This document shows positions 3,562-48,508 of a DNA stretch of 64,000 nt, piece by piece; positions within the stretch are counted from its first letter, which is position 1, and every line of letters starts with the position of its first letter. Source of the DNA: a virus. Lineage: Duplodnaviria; Caudoviricetes. Where the stretch lies: IMG/VR virus record IMGVR_UViG_3300032167_000004, positions 64,001 to 128,000 of that record. One strand, written 5' to 3'. A program made the position numbers and the translations under genes. The notes below the pieces were generated by a model. That model made no database searches. It was not told where the DNA came from and saw only the letters and a list, made by a program, of their open reading frames with translations.

Positions 3562-4770
3562 ATGGTAGTTTTAAAAGAAGAATATAAACAGATGTTATTA
3601 AAAATGAAACCTGATGATATTACTTCAGATTTTGTTTTTGAATATTTGGCAGATACATCTAAAAAAGTAAATGGTAAATTAGTTCAAGTTCCTAGTAAAA
3701 TTAAAACATATGATACATTTACTTTAAAAAAAGGTGAATATTTTAATACAGAAACTATCACTACTAATGTAGGATTATTTATATTTAATAAATTTCTTAT
3801 TGAAGAATCATTTAGTAAAGTAGTTGGTTATATTAATACTCCTGTTAATGCTAAAATACAGAAAAATATTGAAGCTAAAATTAGCCAGGCTTTATTAGAT
3901 GATATCATTACTGTAGAAGAAATGGTTAAATATTTAAATAAATTACAATGGTTATCTAAAGAATTTAATGCTGTTTTTTCTGGTTCTTTTACAATGAAAA
4001 CTTTAAAACCTGTTCCTAAGGTTATGAAACACAAAGAAAAACTTGTAAAAGAAAATAAAGAAGCATTAGATAAAGGTGATATTGCTGTAGCAGTTAATAT
4101 TGAAAAAGAGTTATTAGATATGGCACGAGAAGAGTTAAAAGGTGATCCTGGAATGGATTTATATAACTCAGGGGCTCGTGGTTCTTTTGATAATAACTAT
4201 AAAAATATAGCTGTTATTAAAGGACCTGTATATAATCCTGTTACAGATAAATATGACTTTGTTTCTTCTAACTTTATGGAAGGAATTAAAAAGGAAGAAA
4301 TTCCTATTGTAGCTAATAGTATTCCCGCTGGAGCATATCCGAAAGCAGTCGGAACACAAACCGGAGGCTACTACAACAAACAGATTTCCGCAGCATTTCA
4401 AGGTGTTGTTTTAGATAAACAAGGATCTGATTGTGGTACTAAATTAACTCTTGAAGTATTACTTACTGATTCTAATAAATCTCAATTCTTACATAGATAT
4501 ATTGTATCTGGTAGTAATTTAATTTTATTAGATAGTAATAATATTGATAAGTATATTAATAAAAAAGTAAAATTTAGATCACCTATGTTCTGTAAAGGTG
4601 ATAAATTATGTAGTAAGTGTGCAGGTATTCTTTATTATAAATTAGGTATTGAGAATATAGGTTTAACTGCTACCAAATTGGCTGGTACATTATTGAATCT
4701 TAATATGAAAAAATTCCATAATAGTACAGCTAATATTAAAAAGATTGATCTTAATGAAATTGACTTATAA
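3562..4770 (+). CDS. RNA polymerase beta'-like subunit, C-terminal half (probably virion RNAP, phiKZ gp80-like)
   Basis: beta' C-half motifs: SGARG, GTQTGGY (TADSGY-like), DCGT, RSPMFC...CSKCAG Zn site, NIG...MKKFH trigger-loop-like. Confidence 0.85.
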   Translation: MVVLKEEYKQMLLKMKPDDITSDFVFEYLADTSKKVNGKLVQVPSKIKTYDTFTLKKGEYFNTETITTNVGLFIFNKFLIEESFSKVVGYINTPVNAKIQKNIEAKISQALLDDIITVEEMVKYLNKLQWLSKEFNAVFSGSFTMKTLKPVPKVMKHKEKLVKENKEALDKGDIAVAVNIEKELLDMAREELKGDPGMDLYNSGARGSFDNNYKNIAVIKGPVYNPVTDKYDFVSSNFMEGIKKEEIPIVANSIPAGAYPKAVGTQTGGYYNKQISAAFQGVVLDKQGSDCGTKLTLEVLLTDSNKSQFLHRYIVSGSNLILLDSNNIDKYINKKVKFRSPMFCKGDKLCSKCAGILYYKLGIENIGLTATKLAGTLLNLNMKKFHNSTANIKKIDLNEIDL

Positions 4771-10589: not shown

Positions 10590-10919
10590 ATGACAAAAGA
10601 CATTGAAAATTATAATAGTATAGAATGGTTATTTACTTCTAAATTTGAGAAATTGGTATGTCTTGTTACAGTATGCTATAAAAATAAACAGAGATTGCAT
10701 CTTAATATCGGATTATGTTTAGATTTTGAAACCATGAGTATTGACATTGTGGATGATTTAAATTTTAAACAATGGAATGATTTACAGTGGTTCTTTGCAT
10801 CTAAGTATAAGAGAGCAATGTATCTCATTAAATTAGCATATTCATGTAAAAGATCATTTGATTTCAATAATGGTATAGTTTTAAACTTTAAAACTATGAC
10901 TATTGAGGAGCGTTATTAA
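10590..10919 (+). CDS. Hypothetical protein with internal duplication
   Basis: Two copies of W.F.SK...Y...N.G..L.F.TM.I. Confidence 0.6.
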   Translation: MTKDIENYNSIEWLFTSKFEKLVCLVTVCYKNKQRLHLNIGLCLDFETMSIDIVDDLNFKQWNDLQWFFASKYKRAMYLIKLAYSCKRSFDFNNGIVLNFKTMTIEERY

Positions 10920-10920
10920 T

Positions 10921-11208
10921 ATGGATTATCGACATATGACCAGACCCCAATTTAAATTTGTTGATCGTTATCATGGATCTGTATGGGATAAGACCATTCA
11001 ACATATTTATATTAATCGTTATATGGCAACTATTACAGTAATTGATGATCGTGTTCTTACCGGTTATATTGATGGTTTTGATGAACAAACTATATATCTT
11101 ACAACAAATACTAATCTCGGTAGATCTAGTACAATCTTTCCTAAAGCACATATCACATCTATTAGTTTCTCAGGAGAAAATCTCTTTAGAAATTATGGTG
11201 ATGAATAA
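10921..11208 (+). CDS. Hypothetical protein, possibly Sm/SH3-like beta fold
   Basis: GAGGAG RBS; ITVIDDRVLTGYIDGFDEQTIYL...IFPKAHITSI resembles Hfq/LSm pattern. Confidence 0.45.
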   Translation: MDYRHMTRPQFKFVDRYHGSVWDKTIQHIYINRYMATITVIDDRVLTGYIDGFDEQTIYLTTNTNLGRSSTIFPKAHITSISFSGENLFRNYGDE

Positions 11209-11220
11209 AGAAACTTATTA

Positions 11221-11247
11221 ATAAAGAGGGATAAACTCCCTCTTTAT
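11221..11247 (+). terminator. Intrinsic terminator
   Basis: ATAAAGAGGGA/TCCCTCTTTAT plus T-run; near-identical stem at 20076. Confidence 0.7.
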
Positions 11248-11271
11248 TTTTTTATGAAAGGATGTGTTATT

Positions 11272-11646
11272 ATGATTACTAAAATTATTTTATATATTAT
11301 TTCAATTATAATTATGATTCGTATTTTATCTAAGAAATGTAAGAAATATTTAATTTTATTATGTGGTGTCATTTTATTATCAATTATTATAATATTAGCA
11401 TCATCTACAGAAAACGATCTTAATTCACTTGTTGGTGATGCTGAACTTATTGGTACTTATGAAAATCTTGGTACTATATATTATGATGAAAATGATAATA
11501 TGTATTTTGTTATTAATGTTAATCCCTGGAATTTATTTGAATCATTTAAGAAAACTGATATAGATTATAATTTAGGTGAAATAGCACACATCGCTTCACA
11601 TATTACAAATGAAATGGAAAATCTTATTGAAAGTTATTATAAATAA
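11272..11646 (+). CDS. Two-TM membrane protein, paralog of 9444
   Basis: Hydrophobic N-terminus, shared C-terminal motif. Confidence 0.65.
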   Translation: MITKIILYIISIIIMIRILSKKCKKYLILLCGVILLSIIIILASSTENDLNSLVGDAELIGTYENLGTIYYDENDNMYFVINVNPWNLFESFKKTDIDYNLGEIAHIASHITNEMENLIESYYK

Positions 11647-11674
11647 CTTTTTATTATACTACTAACATATATTT

Positions 11675-11756
11675 AGGTAGATTTTTCTTTTTTCCTTTCT
11701 TTCTTTTGTGTAAGAGAGGTATAAATAATAATTCCAATAAAATTATACCTCTCTTA
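11675..11756 (+). ncRNA. Candidate sRNA A: pyrimidine tract plus 14-bp hairpin
   Basis: AACA-N6-TA at 11664-11675, 26-nt U/C tract 11682-11707, stem 11711-11724/11743-11756, no ORF. Confidence 0.4.
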
Positions 11757-11831
11757 ATATTAAATTTAATTTTTTTATTAACATTCATTTAGAAGGAAAA
11801 TTTTACCATATTATAAAGGAGATATTAATTT

Positions 11832-11954
11832 ATGAAGAATCTTAAAGTTCTTAAGACTGAAAACCGTATTCATGCTCTTACTCAGAGAGATCCTGTTATT
11901 AATAAGAATATTATTAATAAATTGAAGAGAACTTTACGTAATATTAAAAATTAA
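11832..11954 (+). CDS. 40-aa basic peptide (not in ORF track)
   Basis: Late motif 11780-11791, AAAGGAG RBS, MKNLKVLKTENRIHALTQRDPVINKNIINKLKRTLRNIKN. Confidence 0.65.
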   Translation: MKNLKVLKTENRIHALTQRDPVINKNIINKLKRTLRNIKN

Positions 11955-11980
11955 TTATTTATATAACATATATTTATTAG

Positions 11981-12197
11981 GTATATAGATCTGGTTCCAT
12001 CAGTAAATAGTTGATGGGTAAAGAGACGGAATATACATATTGTATTAATCTTTTCCATGATCTTTATATATACATTATAAGAGAGTGAAATAGTAATTAT
12101 CTGGTATATATTCCATTCATTAATGGAGAGTGAAGTACATTAATGATACAGCTTGCCTGGAACCGTTCACTATAATCTAGTAGTAACTCTCTTATAA
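11981..12197 (+). ncRNA. Candidate structured RNAs B (11981-12073) and C (12075-12197)
   Basis: Late motif 11965-11976; B closed by GTATA-AGATC/GATCT-TATAC arms, C closed by 12-bp TTATAAGAGAGT/ACTCTCTTATAA with inner TCATTAATG/CATTAATGA stem; no ORF. Confidence 0.5.
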
Positions 12198-12269
12198 ATT
12201 AAATTTAATTATTTATATAACATTTATTTATAGAAGTAAAATAATCTTTTGATTATTTTATATACATAT

Positions 12270-12378
12270 GGGTCTTATAAGTGATTTACATAGCTTGCCT
12301 TCCTTTGATTTGTCTGGTTCAGCATCCTTCCAACTCATAGGATATGAAATCATCGCTGGTTAAGTTCAGCAAAGACCC
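12270..12378 (+). ncRNA. Candidate structured RNA D
   Basis: Late motif 12219-12230; closing GGGTCTT/AAGACCC, inner GTGATTT/AAATCAT and ATCCT/AGGAT stems; GC-enriched. Confidence 0.5.
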
Positions 12379-12388
12379 CCTCTTTCTG

Positions 12389-12631
12389 TTTTCCGGGAAG
12401 GGTGAGAGAAAAAAGGAATTCGTTCATAGTAAAAAATATTAAATTAAGAAACATTTTATGATGTCACCGCCATAGATGTCATTTTATCATATGATTTTGC
12501 CTGCCTGTCTGCAGTTTGCCGTCAATGACTGCATTCCCGCGCCATTACGTTGATACCTCCATCCCCTGTTTCTTAGTAATCCATACTGTATTTAATATTT
12601 TTTGGGTTTCTTTTAATCCCTTCCCGGAAAA
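12389..12631 (+). ncRNA. Candidate structured RNA E (~243 nt)
   Basis: Nested stems 12389-12402/12618-12631 (14 bp), 12431-12444/12590-12603 (14 bp), 12445-12453/12567-12575 (9 bp) enclosing a GC-rich domain; strand inferred from flanking promoter motifs. Confidence 0.55.
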
Positions 12632-12707
12632 TTCAAATTATTTTTTGAATATATATTATTGATATAACATATAAGTAAATATAATATTAATTTATGTTTT
12701 GTAATAC

Positions 12708-12794
12708 CCCGGGTTGGCGGAATAGGTAGACGCAAGGGACTTAAAATCCCTCGCTGGCGACAGCGTACCAGTTCGAAGCTGGTATCCGGGACCA
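12708..12794 (+). tRNA. tRNA-Leu(UAA)
   Basis: Cloverleaf CCCGGGT/ATCCGGG, anticodon arm AGGGA-CTTAAAA-TCCCT, long variable arm, TTCGA T-loop, encoded CCA. Confidence 0.95.
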
Positions 12795-12800
12795 TGAAAA

Positions 12801-12838
12801 TCCCGACTACAGAGGAAAATATAAATCTGTAGTCGGGA
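12801..12838 (+). terminator. Hairpin after tRNA-Leu
   Basis: TCCCGACTACAGA/TCTGTAGTCGGGA plus Ts. Confidence 0.6.
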
Positions 12839-12861
12839 TATTTTTATTAATTATATAATAT

Positions 12862-12937
12862 GGGTCCATAGCTCAGTTGGTAGAGCAACGCCCTTTTAAG
12901 GCGTGGGTCAGCAGTTCGAGCCTGCTTGGACTCACCA
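12862..12937 (+). tRNA. tRNA-Lys(UUU)
   Basis: 76-nt cloverleaf GGGTCCA/TGGACTC, ACGCC-CTTTTAA-GGCGT, CCA end. Confidence 0.95.
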
Positions 12938-12946
12938 CTCCATTAT

Positions 12947-12978
12947 ATCCCTATACTGGTATGTCCAGTATAGGGATT
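12947..12978 (+). terminator. Hairpin after tRNA-Lys
   Basis: ATCCCTATACTGG/CCAGTATAGGGAT. Confidence 0.6.
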
Positions 12979-13013
12979 ATTATTTGTCAAATTTTAAGAA
13001 AGGAAAATAAAGA

Positions 13014-13823
13014 ATGCTAAATATTGTTATTAATACACCTACAGACAGAGGTATATATACTGATATATATGCTATTGATGAAAGAGATAAATACTATCAT
13101 CAATTATATCATGCAAGATGTAAGGTATGTGGAACTGAAATAAAAAGTCGTTTAATAGATATTAATCGTAAAAATTCAGTATGTGTACATAAATATATTA
13201 AAACATTTATACGAGATTATCGTATAAATAAAATATTTCAAGGAATGAAACGTAGATGCTATGATAAACACGATAAAGCTTATAGAATGTATGGTGCTAA
13301 AGGAATAACAATTTGTGATGAATGGTTATATACTCCATATAAATTTGAAGAATGGTCGTTACAAAATGGATATCAAGATGATTTAACAATAGACAGAATA
13401 GATTCATCAAAAGGATATTCACCAGATAATTGCAGATGGATTGACTCTGAAACTAATTCTAAATATAAAAAATCCACTAAAGTATTATATGTTAATGGTA
13501 TGGGATTAAGTATGAGGGATTGGTCTAAAGTTATGGGACATGCCAATCATTATATATCAAAATATAATAAAAAACATGGTGAAAAAGCTACTATTCATTT
13601 GATTAGAAAATATATAAGACAACATAAATCATCTTCTGAAAGAATGTTAATGCAATTACATCCTTTTATTCTTAATGAAAAAGATAAATATTATAATATT
13701 GATATAAATCATCCTAGTATTGAAACTGAAACTACTCTTGATAAAATTACTGATTATATTAAGAATAATAAAGTTCCTGTAGATGAGAATGGTTATTATA
13801 ATATTAATATTAAAGTGAATTGA
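13014..13823 (+). CDS. Free-standing HNH homing endonuclease
   Basis: MKRRC...YGAKGITIC.EW...LTIDRIDSSKGYSPDNCRW signature. Confidence 0.85.
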   Translation: MLNIVINTPTDRGIYTDIYAIDERDKYYHQLYHARCKVCGTEIKSRLIDINRKNSVCVHKYIKTFIRDYRINKIFQGMKRRCYDKHDKAYRMYGAKGITICDEWLYTPYKFEEWSLQNGYQDDLTIDRIDSSKGYSPDNCRWIDSETNSKYKKSTKVLYVNGMGLSMRDWSKVMGHANHYISKYNKKHGEKATIHLIRKYIRQHKSSSERMLMQLHPFILNEKDKYYNIDINHPSIETETTLDKITDYIKNNKVPVDENGYYNINIKVN

Positions 13824-13849
13824 TAATATTGAAAGGGAAATAATAAAAA

Positions 13850-14263
13850 ATGGATAATCATAATATTGTATTAGCTAGATTAAGAGCATTGAATATGTTT
13901 GCTCGTTATGGTATTTGTACATATGATACATCATATAGAAAGGTTAATAATGATGTTATTATTGGAGATTTTATTAAATATTTAATTAAATTTCAATTAA
14001 TTATCGGTGATACTAAAAATAATACACTGATATTTAAAATTCCTAAAAATGAAGGTTCTCATATTGATTATTTTATTTTATATGATAATGTAAAAGATAG
14101 ACTTTTTATGGTTAAAAATAATGACCGTTGTAATAAAATCAAAATTTGTTATAAAAAAGTCGATATGGATAATAATGAAAATACATTATTTTATAGTAAT
14201 CATGAATTTGAACACATTATTGAATCAATTATTACTAAAGTATTTACATGTAGTCATAGTTAA
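13850..14263 (+). CDS. Hypothetical protein
   Basis: 137 aa, GAAAGGGA RBS. Confidence 0.55.
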   Translation: MDNHNIVLARLRALNMFARYGICTYDTSYRKVNNDVIIGDFIKYLIKFQLIIGDTKNNTLIFKIPKNEGSHIDYFILYDNVKDRLFMVKNNDRCNKIKICYKKVDMDNNENTLFYSNHEFEHIIESIITKVFTCSHS

Positions 14264-14377
14264 TAACAAATAATTATACATATAACATATAAATATAGGG
14301 TTCTAATTTTTAGAACCCAAATTAAAAATAATTAATACTATAACATAATATTAGAGAAGGTATTAAATATTATATAC

Positions 14378-14454: not shown

Positions 14455-14467
14455 AAATACATATCAT

Positions 14468-14727
14468 GGTGCATTTCATGCATCACCAAAAAAATCCTTA
14501 GTACCAACCAAGGATGGTTCCTTATCTCTGAGCCTCTCCTATGTGAGAGCAATGCAGAAGAATAGAGTCTGGTCTTTCTTAATCCTTCTCCCAGACTCTA
14601 TTCATTTTTTACATATGGGGTAAATTTTATCCCCGCCCATCAAGTCAAGCGTTTGAATATAGAGACCCTACATATTGTTATATTCAAACAACCCTTACAA
14701 CCCCATAATAGGATATCCTATTATGGG
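14468..14727 (+). ncRNA. Array of hairpins with C/U-rich loops downstream of tRNA-CAU
   Basis: 13-bp stem 14560-14572/14591-14603, TATGGGGT/ACCCCATA-closed unit with inner GTTTGAATATA/TATATTCAAAC stem, terminal palindrome 14702-14727; no ORF. Confidence 0.45.
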
Positions 14728-14770
14728 TCTATATTTAAAATTTTTCATATTGTATAAAGGAGAATAAAAT

Positions 14771-45880: not shown

Positions 45881-48508
45881 TTAAGTCTTAAGTATGGTGT
45901 TCGTATCAGGATTTAATAAAATATTATTTTCAGTGATATGTAATATATCAGGATTTAAAAATAGATCATTATCGGTATTAATAAATAATGTTGGATATTT
46001 ATCCACCATAGATTGTGTAATCTGTAAAGTATCGGGATTAATTAATTTAATATAATTCCAGAGATATTCATTAAAAAACTCTTCAATTTCTACTATGATA
46101 TCATCAATTAAATCTGGAATTGTATCCTCAATATCAGGTAAACCGTCCTCGATATCATCAATAATTTCATCAAATATTTTAGAACTGATGTCATCAGTAG
46201 GATAATCATCTCCCCAATCAAGACAATCTAAATTCTTTTGATATATTTCAAGATTTGTTAAGGTAGGTACATCTTTAAGTATAAATATATAAGGTGCCAC
46301 AATTTCTATATTAGATTCATGGAGTCGTAAACCATTTAAATATATATCATACCACTTAAAATCTAACGGTTTATTAATTTTACCAGTTAAATTAACAATA
46401 CCTTTTTTATTTATTCTTCTCTCATAATGTACCATAAAATATTTATTACTATTATATACAAGTGTATATTCATCATTAGGATCCTGTTTCATCATGCCTC
46501 TAATAGCATGAGGACCTGATGCATTATCTGAGAATAAATATCTACGCAACTTCTGAGGAATTAATCTACCATTACGATATAATAAGATATTTTTTCTATC
46601 ATTATTGATTTCTCTATCAATAATAACTTCATTACTACCTTTTACAACTTGTTTAAAACTAACCCTGTTTACATTAATATCTACAGTTTTACCAATATCT
46701 AAAGGATTAATAAATTTAATATAAATTTTTTTATAATTATAAAAATCATTAGATGTTATTTGATAATAACCACCATCAAGATATGCATATAAACTATAAT
46801 CATTTTTAGATAAATAGATATTCTGATCATCCAAAGATTTAGTGGTGACATAAATATCAGACGGTTGAATATATTGATCTTCAGGTATATTAACTTTATG
46901 ATAAGATATATTATCAATTATTTCTATGGATTGTTTATATCTATAATCTACAAATTTTTCTACAGTAATACGACTATTAGAATTTATCATTCTAATAGGA
47001 ATGTATATATAGTAATAACGATTATCATGGAATGTATATAAATCATTGGTTTGATAAGAATCAATTAATATATTAATTTTATCACCTTTTTTATATCTGA
47101 AAGTAAATAAATAACATGTTTCATTAAAGGTGACTCTTTCAGTAGTTTCTTTAATTTCTTTAAAATTATTAGACCTATATCTGTCAGTTAAATCATCTAT
47201 TTCAGATACATCAATATCAAAAGTTGGAATATATCCAATTAATTTATGTAAATAAATTGAATAATAATTACCATTTTTATATATCATATTATTCAACTTA
47301 TTCATCTTATATTTAAGATGATCTAATTTAGAATTAGTCCAATCATCATGATCATATGTCATTGAAATAGGTTTATAATTTTTAATAATATCAGGAATTG
47401 AATTATCAGCATATTTTTCTAATACATTTTTAGTAAATCTATAATATAATGACAATTCATTTTCATACTTAGATCCTATAGATTTTGTATCATCAGCATA
47501 ATATATATAAATAATCATATCATCATCATGACCAGTATATAATTCATATATATTAGGATAATGTAATATTACCTTTGTAGTATGATCAAAGAATACATCA
47601 ATTCCGGATTTTCTAAAAATGATAATATTTTCAATAGGAACAGGCATATCCTTTATAGGTAATTCAAAATACTTAGTACCTGCAGGAATATCTATAGTAT
47701 CGAAATGATTTAATAAAAAAATATTTCTAATATCTGTATGTATATTAGTTAATGCTAATACCTGCTCACTATTAAGTTTTAATTTATTTTCTTCATTTTT
47801 AAAAGCTTTAATAAATTTATATTTATACAATTGTGTATCATCATATGTTATCCATGTAGTAAAATTATTAGTTTCAGATATCATATTAGAATTTTCAAAA
47901 TTTACAATAGGAATACCATTATACTTAGGTACTATTGTATAGTTTCTTATCGTTCCTCGATTAGAATGAAGTGTAGATATATTATGAGCTTTAACAATTA
48001 AAACTGTCATTTTACTATGAGATTCAATCAAATCCCTAATTTCTAATTTAGTAAATCCATCATGTATATATCTTTCACCAGGTTTATGAACAGGACATTG
48101 TTCAAATACTCTAAATGATACAGTAGTAATATTTTCCAACATGTTAATACGATAATTAGTATACATTTCACCATTTATAAAAACAAATATATTATTACTA
48201 AATATATTTGGATTAGAATTGATTTCATCTGGAGTTAATAATTTTTTATAAAATTTTGACTGCTTAAATTTAGTTCTATTTTTATTTGTAATAAATTGTA
48301 AATTTAAATTATATGAGCATTCTGTTTCTGTAAATTTTGTCATATTAGCCATATCAAAATCAAATCTAATCATACCTGAAAGTGATTTTTGTGCATCATA
48401 TAAATTATTAAATATAGATTCTTTTATATCCCATAAAGTCTCATTCAATATTTTAATATTGAATTGATCTTTACCGATAAGTTCATATACGTGCTTATTA
48501 TCAGACAT
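45881..48508 (-). CDS. Large virion structural protein (baseplate-like)
   Basis: 875 aa with repeated F/Y.NG beta motifs; late motif at 48549-48560. Confidence 0.55.
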   Translation of the reverse strand: MSDNKHVYELIGKDQFNIKILNETLWDIKESIFNNLYDAQKSLSGMIRFDFDMANMTKFTETECSYNLNLQFITNKNRTKFKQSKFYKKLLTPDEINSNPNIFSNNIFVFINGEMYTNYRINMLENITTVSFRVFEQCPVHKPGERYIHDGFTKLEIRDLIESHSKMTVLIVKAHNISTLHSNRGTIRNYTIVPKYNGIPIVNFENSNMISETNNFTTWITYDDTQLYKYKFIKAFKNEENKLKLNSEQVLALTNIHTDIRNIFLLNHFDTIDIPAGTKYFELPIKDMPVPIENIIIFRKSGIDVFFDHTTKVILHYPNIYELYTGHDDDMIIYIYYADDTKSIGSKYENELSLYYRFTKNVLEKYADNSIPDIIKNYKPISMTYDHDDWTNSKLDHLKYKMNKLNNMIYKNGNYYSIYLHKLIGYIPTFDIDVSEIDDLTDRYRSNNFKEIKETTERVTFNETCYLFTFRYKKGDKINILIDSYQTNDLYTFHDNRYYYIYIPIRMINSNSRITVEKFVDYRYKQSIEIIDNISYHKVNIPEDQYIQPSDIYVTTKSLDDQNIYLSKNDYSLYAYLDGGYYQITSNDFYNYKKIYIKFINPLDIGKTVDINVNRVSFKQVVKGSNEVIIDREINNDRKNILLYRNGRLIPQKLRRYLFSDNASGPHAIRGMMKQDPNDEYTLVYNSNKYFMVHYERRINKKGIVNLTGKINKPLDFKWYDIYLNGLRLHESNIEIVAPYIFILKDVPTLTNLEIYQKNLDCLDWGDDYPTDDISSKIFDEIIDDIEDGLPDIEDTIPDLIDDIIVEIEEFFNEYLWNYIKLINPDTLQITQSMVDKYPTLFINTDNDLFLNPDILHITENNILLNPDTNTILKT

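Follow-up and report, generated by a model that had tools for sequence, protein, structure and literature searches.

The element described here occupies positions 12388-12632 of the window, by which we mean the whole stretch of DNA that was analysed, 64,000 nucleotides long and corresponding to bases 64001-128000 of an IMG/VR virus record that is judged complete at 263,786 bp. The RNA polymerase beta-type subunit encoded at 3562-4770 has 38-40% identity with that of Bacillus phages AR9 and PBS1 and of Staphylococcus jumbo phages, and 62-63% with that of two uncultivated IMG/VR phages; because of these identities the source genome is, by sequence, that of an AT-rich AR9/PBS1-like jumbo phage carrying its own multisubunit RNA polymerases. 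Public sequencing runs that hold the stretch come from 18 studies and are labelled animal faeces, bovine gut, and gut metagenomes.

The element lies within 750 nt devoid of credible ORFs (11955-12707), directly upstream of tRNA-Leu(UAA) and tRNA-Lys(UUU), with tRNA-Met(CAU) 1.6 kb further on; all genes and tRNAs around it are on the plus strand. Between tRNA-Lys and tRNA-Met is the gene of a free-standing HNH homing endonuclease, which starts 380 nt downstream of the element and has more than 1,500 homologues in metagenomes. This gene seems to be absent from a related strain, because the DNA run of that strain (X8) has zero depth over 13020-13220, within the gene. The features of the locus and the natural variants found in it are collected in the table.

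Some further observations concern the surroundings. Immediately upstream of the RNA cluster, ORF 11832-11954 specifies a very basic product of 40 aa, whose pI is predicted to be 11.6. It has an AACA-N6-TA motif of its own, and its ribosome-binding site, AAAGGAG, is strong; a PHROG search with it returned no match, and it could be a small RNA-binding protein. For ORF 10903-11208, neither Pfam nor PHROG gave a match at the thresholds used. Directly behind tRNA-Met, at 14455-14760, is another non-coding stretch rich in GC (40-45%), which has no sequence similarity to the element. Outside the window, at genome positions 48190-48450, TATAACA-N6-TA is followed by a short G-rich segment and then by about 170 nt of 0% GC, rich in long-range AT-only inverted repeats; this region could be an origin or another RNA gene. 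Finally, one X8 contig joins 11923 to 12669, omitting the whole cluster of RNAs B-E (745 nt), which, if real, would make the RNA cluster a cassette present or absent among related strains; the joint has 21 letters on one side only and is too weak to count.

Features of the element and its surroundings, with natural variants (positions in the window)
Feature	Position	Strand	Basis or remark
AR9-type late promoter motif TATAACA-N6-TA	12216-12230	+	predicted start A12230
5' hairpin right after the predicted start	12236-12261	+	MFE of 12225-12640
RNA D domain, closed by 7-bp GGGUCUU/AAGACCC	12270-12378	+	MFE
Unpaired C/U-rich linker CCCCCUCUUUCU between RNA D and the element	12375-12387	+	MFE
Helix H1	12388-12402 / 12618-12632	+	15 bp; MFE and perfect inverted repeat
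Helix H2	12403-12411 / 12607-12615	+	9 bp, two G.U; MFE
Asymmetric internal loop AAAGGAAUUCGUUCAUAG, 5' side, between H2 and H3	12412-12429	+	18 nt
Helix H3	12430-12444 / 12590-12604	+	15 bp, all A-U plus one U.G; MFE and inverted repeat
Helix H4	12445-12453 / 12567-12575	+	9 bp; MFE
Hairpin A, 8-bp stem, loop ACCGCCAUA	12458-12482	+	MFE; loop unpaired probability 0.76
Irregular hairpin B	12485-12555	+	apical 7-bp stem 12510-12516/12527-12533; MFE
Junction tract CCUCCAUCCCC, anti-Shine-Dalgarno-like	12556-12566	+	predicted unpaired, probability 0.74-1.0
3'-side bulge between H4 and H3	12576-12589	+	14 nt; MFE
A/U-rich tail UCAAAUUAUUUUUUGAAU, possible transcript end	12633-12650	+	read from sequence
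Next TATAACA-N6-TA promoter, serving tRNA-Leu	12663-12677	+	downstream limit of the unit
tRNA-Leu	12708-12794	+	76 nt downstream of the element
Free-standing HNH homing endonuclease ORF	13014-13823		between tRNA-Lys and tRNA-Met; PHROG E = 3e-38
Variant, 1-nt deletion	12376		linker; C-run length polymorphic
Variant, 7-nt deletion	12405		diverged variant; removes 5' strand of H2
Variant G>U	12406		weakens G.U pair in H2
Variant U>C	12430		U.G pair becomes C-G, strengthening this H3 pair
Variant G>A	12469		hairpin A loop
Variant, 1-nt deletion	12518		hairpin B apical loop
Variant, 1-nt deletion	12563		unpaired C-run; seen in the X15 RNA contig
Variant G>A	12588		3' bulge

Promoter, strand and ends of the transcript

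[quoted passage not shown] A motif of this type, TATAACA-N6-TA, is located 160 nt upstream of the element. Genome-wide the motif occurs 11 times on the plus strand and twice on the minus strand, and five of the 11 are packed into 2.4 kb (11962, 12216, 12663, 14281, and 14339). Each of the five stands shortly upstream of an RNA gene, the genes being those of RNAs B/C and D/E, of tRNA-Leu and tRNA-Met, and of a hairpin at 14296. In a related phage (G002) the same motif precedes a tRNA-Ser. Matches to sigma-70 promoters are not enriched.

Between RNA D and the element there is no TATAACA-N6-TA motif, and as the element lacks its own promoter motif, co-transcription with RNA D is probable. A single transcript of about 400 nt is therefore likely to carry both RNAs, with “RNA E,” as the element has been labelled, as its 3' domain, and the order along this transcript would be 5' hairpin, RNA D, C/U-rich linker, and rod. 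The plus strand is the most likely assignment for the element, given the promoter and the orientation of the genes. The CCCC runs of the region are clustered in the RNA island. In RNA D itself, the hairpin GCUGG-UUAAGU-UCAGC ends one base before the 3' strand of the closing helix, so placed that hairpin and closing helix loosely resemble the acceptor/T-arm pair of a tRNA; no tRNA model matched RNA D at E <= 10.

The 3' end is not that of a canonical terminator: a consensus terminator scan called none at or after the element, and instead of the short GC-rich hairpin with an immediate U run that defines an intrinsic terminator, the “loop” here is about 200 nt and the U run starts about 10 nt past the stem.

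Fold and natural variation of the element

In the minimum free energy (MFE) fold of 12388-12632 (245 nt), four nested helices of 15, 9, 15, and 9 bp, 48 bp in total, follow one another along the element, and we believe that they form a rod closing off a GC-rich three-way core. The core is predicted by the same fold to be a three-way junction made of hairpin A, hairpin B, and the unpaired tract CCUCCAUCCCC. An initial annotation of this DNA had described three nested stems of 14, 14, and 9 bp enclosing a GC-rich domain of about 113 nt, and most of that description stands: the two pairs of 14-bp arms (12389-12402/12618-12631 and 12431-12444/12590-12603) are present, each lengthened to 15 bp in the MFE fold; the 9-bp helix 12445-12453/12567-12575 is found again; and the enclosed domain, 12454-12566, is indeed GC-rich. 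What had been overlooked is the fourth helix, H2 (12403-12411/12607-12615).

The GC content is 46% in the core (113 nt), 37% in the whole element and 28% in the window, so that the core resembles the neighboring tRNAs in its high GC within AT-rich surroundings. The structure is thermodynamically exceptional, with a plus-strand folding energy of -65.7 kcal/mol (z = -4.88) and not one of 200 shuffled sequences as stable. The minus strand folds with z = -4.07, and the energies of the two strands set side by side are alike (-65.2 kcal/mol for plus, -65.6 kcal/mol for minus); folding does not, therefore, distinguish the strands. The outer stem also stands apart within the genome. The 264 kb hold 79 perfect inverted repeats of at least 14 bp within 300 nt, nearly all of them short-range, terminator-like hairpins with stems of 14-19 bp and small loops; few are long-range (more than 100 nt apart), and the outer stem of the element is the only long-range one with substantial GC (8/14). 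Among the segments left open by the helices, the internal loop AAAGGAAUUCGUUCAUAG contains the palindrome GAAUUC and has a mean predicted unpaired probability of 0.75.

Natural variation in the element is compatible with this fold and is far too little for proof. The variants fall in loops, bulges, and unpaired runs as well as in H2 and H3 (see table), and in the contig of the diverged variant the resemblance to the window ends beyond 12491. Covariation gives no support, as the only full relative, a 44.8-kb JGI contig (L032), is 100% identical to the element and uninformative on conservation.

The element does not code for protein. The only sizeable ORF on the plus strand, 12516-12662, is broken by natural 1-nt indels at 12518, 12563, and 12567, and a homologue search with it found none.

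RNA libraries, relatives and alternative readings

Contigs assembled from one DNA and three RNA libraries were compared with positions 11000-14000; depths are low (3-10), and the runs had been chosen because words of 11700-13000 occur in them. In a gut metatranscriptome (X15), the only closely matching contig is 298 nt long and runs from 12323 to 12621 with 0 mismatches and one 1-nt gap, bridging the junction of RNA D and the element; the rest of the 3 kb is without cover except for contigs, 80-90% alike, over the tRNA genes. A bovine gut metatranscriptome from a different study (X20) contributed a 151-nt contig spanning 12476-12626 with one mismatch, and a second contig of higher depth that is a diverged variant of 12379-12491. 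Other matches in the RNA runs, on tRNAs, belong to other organisms, as they are only 80-90% alike. The flanking protein genes have zero or near-zero depth in the RNA runs, and most of 11000-12300 and of 13020-14000 has little or no cover in the RNA contigs, a weak hint only, while the DNA run X8 covers the flanks, with a contig extending to 12675. The element is thus present in RNA libraries of two studies, and because the close matches of both are confined to 12323-12626, they suggest a stable RNA more abundant than its neighbors, from contigs that show neither strand nor true ends nor abundance. On this point the initial annotation holds: the nested-helix scaffold around a GC-rich domain is a real feature at the RNA level, most likely of the plus strand.

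One explanation of these data would be a purely cis-acting 3' structure, ending or stabilizing the RNA D transcript or insulating it from the tRNA-Leu unit, with no function in trans. The position of the element fits this, as it lacks a promoter of its own and is directly behind RNA D, with a U-rich tail and the next promoter coming after it; moreover, the RNA contigs of the two studies end 5 nt apart (12621 and 12626), close to where the outer helix H1 finishes, while the DNA contig continues. We consider it unlikely, however, because the phage's other terminator-like hairpins are of the small-looped type described above with nothing comparable to the element in 264 kb, because termination needs no branched, GC-rich core of 113 nt, and because the terminator scan does not call the element.

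The searches for relatives found none beyond the identical contig. Rfam at gathering thresholds placed nothing on the element in the whole window, and at E <= 10 with the laxest filters (11700-13000 and 12200-12680) no family on 12389-12631 on either strand; the matches obtained are tRNAs and, elsewhere, group I introns only, with no support on the element for 6S, SRP, RNase P, tmRNA, Y RNA, T-box, ROOL, GOLLD, or RsaE. The element is single-copy in its own genome, and blastn of 50,697 phage records and 72,556 plasmids returned no relative. Neither BLAST nor a covariance model (R1, built on 12430-12604) detected it in 13 related IMG/VR jumbo phage records, and exact-pattern scans returned nothing, whether for two words of the core in IMG/VR or, in JGI metagenome contigs, for one core word and the 5' arm of the outer stem. 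IMG/VR gave no close relatives of the neighboring ORFs 11254-11646 and 13014-13823; synteny with the two nearest relatives breaks off immediately behind the RNA polymerase beta gene, and their tRNA islands contain no extra GC-rich non-coding RNA. Since it was not found in the 13 related records or in these tRNA islands, the element is young or dispensable, and our verdict is that it is restricted to one phage lineage. Two further candidates found no support: a bacterial Y RNA (YrlA type) has no Rfam match and no TROVE domain in the 264-kb genome, and a retron msr-msd RNA has no RVT_1 anywhere in the genome, the downstream ORF being the HNH endonuclease; both readings lose their partners, because no TROVE/Ro protein and no reverse transcriptase is encoded. 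RNase III is likewise not encoded in the genome.

The initial annotation had proposed a translation-blocking antisense RNA, and the corresponding alternative is a regulator or sponge in which CCUCCAUCCCC and CCCCCUCUUUCU pair with the Shine-Dalgarno (SD) sequences of host or early phage ribosome-binding sites and block translation, as the C-rich motifs of RoxS and RsaE do. The sequence 12540-12560 is CGCCATTACGTTGATACCTCC, as had been stated; its description as the exact complement of GGAGGU-N9-AUG-GCG, however, restates the minus strand. The tract CCUCCAUCCCC, whose CCUCC is exactly complementary to the core SD, is open according to the prediction (unpaired probability 0.74-1.0). Positions 12540-12555 are mostly paired inside irregular hairpin B, which contains most of the 21-nt “SD-N9-AUG-GCG” complement. 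The second “anti-AUGGCG,” CCGCCAT at 12467-12473, is present but naturally polymorphic (12469 G>A), and the length of the C-run is variable. In favor of such a regulator, the RNA seems abundant, CCUCC is invariant in the three near-identical strains that cover it, and CCTCC is rare on the plus strand (3 in 34.5 kb); with 1.3 expected, though, a single CCTCC is within chance, and the four CCAU/CCAT of the element are not significant either (P = 0.08). A target could not be found in the phage: no site in the 264 kb complements 12540-12566, its halves, or 12552-12566 better than shuffled queries do, and the exposed loops show no pairing with the other RNAs and tRNAs of the island beyond that of shuffled sequences. 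The anti-RBS segment also does not appear conserved, since the diverged variant has no resemblance beyond 12491, and there is no Rfam match, RsaE included. We judge this reading to be quite unlikely.

The related suggestion that the domain was built from captured host sequence finds no support, as the matches are short, in unrelated contexts, and at approximately chance frequency. One is an exact 22-mer, GCAGTTTGCCGTCAATGACTGC (12512-12533, in the apical hairpin), inside an 819-aa ORF of Gemmiger formicilis (L044:6797-6818), with a weak amino-acid echo of 11/13; about 0.07 random 22-mer matches are expected in the 596-Gb collection under a uniform model, and more for codon-like sequence. A 41/50 match at the same spot is found in another genome, in a different gene that looks like the pyruvate formate-lyase type, and both matches are centered on GCC-GTC-AAT-GAC (Ala-Val-Asn-Asp). 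In about 700 sampled Bacillota genomes the remaining matches are short, AT-rich, or intergenic; neither a 30-nt AT-rich match in a 5' UTR, which is short and at chance level, nor an 18-nt complement of the junction tract in an intergenic spacer without a start codon is evidence of capture. We take the bacterial matches to be due to chance.

Decidedly improbable, in our opinion, is a selfish or accidental palindromic insertion that resembles a MITE, or the GC clusters found in AT-rich mitochondrial genomes, and owes its transcription to its position alone. The inverted-repeat arms with about 48 paired nt on each side, the GC-rich core, the lack of finds in related phages, and the mobile-DNA hot spot implied by the nearby homing endonuclease gene are what one would expect of such an insertion. 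It would be surprising, however, for the element to be single-copy in its genome, to have no target-site duplication at 12388/12632, and to have no copies in the phage and plasmid collections, in the approximately 700 Bacillota genomes, or in the exact scans of IMG/VR and JGI; its presence in RNA libraries above that of its neighbors favors a stable RNA instead. Hardly credible at all is the minus-strand element that had been offered as an alternative, in which GGAGG-N9-AUG would start a 7-aa leader (MARECSH) upstream of a decayed c-di-GMP-I-like riboswitch: the minus strand does read GGAGGT-N9-ATG and folds about as well as the plus strand, but neither c-di-GMP-I nor any other Rfam family matches either strand at E <= 10 with the laxest filters, a riboswitch of this type (GEMM-I) would have no minus-strand gene downstream, where only plus-strand RNA genes and ORFs are found, no AR9-type promoter motif faces that way, and the strand bias of the extended motif is 11:2 for plus.

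Proposed mode of action and comparison with known phage RNAs

We favor, with moderate confidence, the reading of 12388-12632 as a 3' domain within a non-coding RNA some 400 nt long: a stable rod with a few exposed segments that acts in trans. The plus strand would be transcribed late in infection by the AR9-type RNA polymerase of the phage, from about 12230 to about 12630-12650. The rod probably shields the RNA from degradation, and such protection would explain why this part of the phage appears in gut RNA libraries. Action in trans would most likely be through the 18-nt internal loop, the loop of hairpin A, the CCUCCAUCCCC junction, and the CCCCCUCUUUCU linker, and these exposed segments would bind a protein or another RNA. 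The rod is thus best read, on the predicted fold, as a stabilizing scaffold that presents a few open segments, and the element is a real, if orphan, structured RNA domain of a phage, probably plus-stranded, late-expressed, and stable.

A more speculative version, which we think rather unlikely, is that of a decoy RNA of a new class: a very stable rod, made late by a jumbo phage with its own polymerase, that soaks up Shine-Dalgarno sequences by means of CCUCC and the C/U tracts or traps a host protein. The protein trapped could be, for example, a defense sensor, a dsRNA-binding nuclease, or the RNA polymerase of the host, and the RNA would belong to an “RNA island,” made up of tRNAs and decoy RNAs and propagated by a homing endonuclease.

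The element can be compared with RNAs that are already known. The tRNA region of phage T4 encodes two small and stable RNAs whose function is unknown, “RNA species I and II” (alternatively RNAs C and D), together with the free-standing homing endonuclease segB (PMC2330249). The likeness is in the setting, stable RNAs among tRNA genes with a homing endonuclease (here the HNH gene, there segB); the element, however, has no sequence similarity to any deposited phage. The stable RNAs of T4 are processed from tRNA precursor transcripts, whereas the element has a predicted phage-polymerase promoter of its own and a much longer rod.

Beside the tRNAs of phage K are abundant lncRNAs that the authors of the study likened to GOLLD and ROOL (PMC9241854), and RNAs of the GOLLD/ROOL type are non-coding RNAs adjacent to tRNA genes that phages of Firmicutes transcribe abundantly (PMC9241854; bioRxiv 10.1101/2024.12.08.627333). 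The element shares this position, 76 nt from a tRNA-Leu gene in a phage genome, and its habitat fits that of ROOL, its runs being labelled animal faeces and bovine gut/bovine metagenome. ROOL is named for its rumen origin, and GOLLD and ROOL RNAs are roughly 600-800 nt in size. Unlike them, the element is 245 nt (about 400 with RNA D), is a simple rod rather than an ornate multi-domain fold, and has no match to either model at E <= 10.

With 6S RNA the predicted fold of the element has in common a rod with paired 5' and 3' ends and large internal loops. The prediction includes the closing stem, but in place of a two-sided central bubble it shows two one-sided loops, 18 nt on the 5' strand and 14 nt on the 3' strand, offset from each other by a 15-bp helix; the 6S model does not match. 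If a 6S-like role were true, a phage with its own RNA polymerases could gain by trapping the host enzyme. The RoxS/RsaE-type sRNAs of Firmicutes are similar in that the C-rich tract CCUCCAUCCCC, predicted to be unpaired, would be able to pair with SD sequences; the element differs from them in being much larger, in having no family match, and in lacking a phage target with extended complementarity. In all, the element resembles the loose group of phage RNAs from tRNA islands and is a member of no defined family.

At present, as a lineage-restricted orphan without covariation support, the element is a lead and not a discovery. Abundant non-coding RNAs encoded next to tRNA genes recur among large phages, as RNA species I and II of T4, the lncRNAs of phage K, GOLLD, and ROOL show, and the element adds an example from an AR9-like gut jumbo phage with its own polymerases, one with a clear promoter, a simple architecture, and a presence in natural RNA samples. 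If its partner were found, it would reveal the purpose of such RNA islands, be it anti-defense, host shut-off, or translation control.
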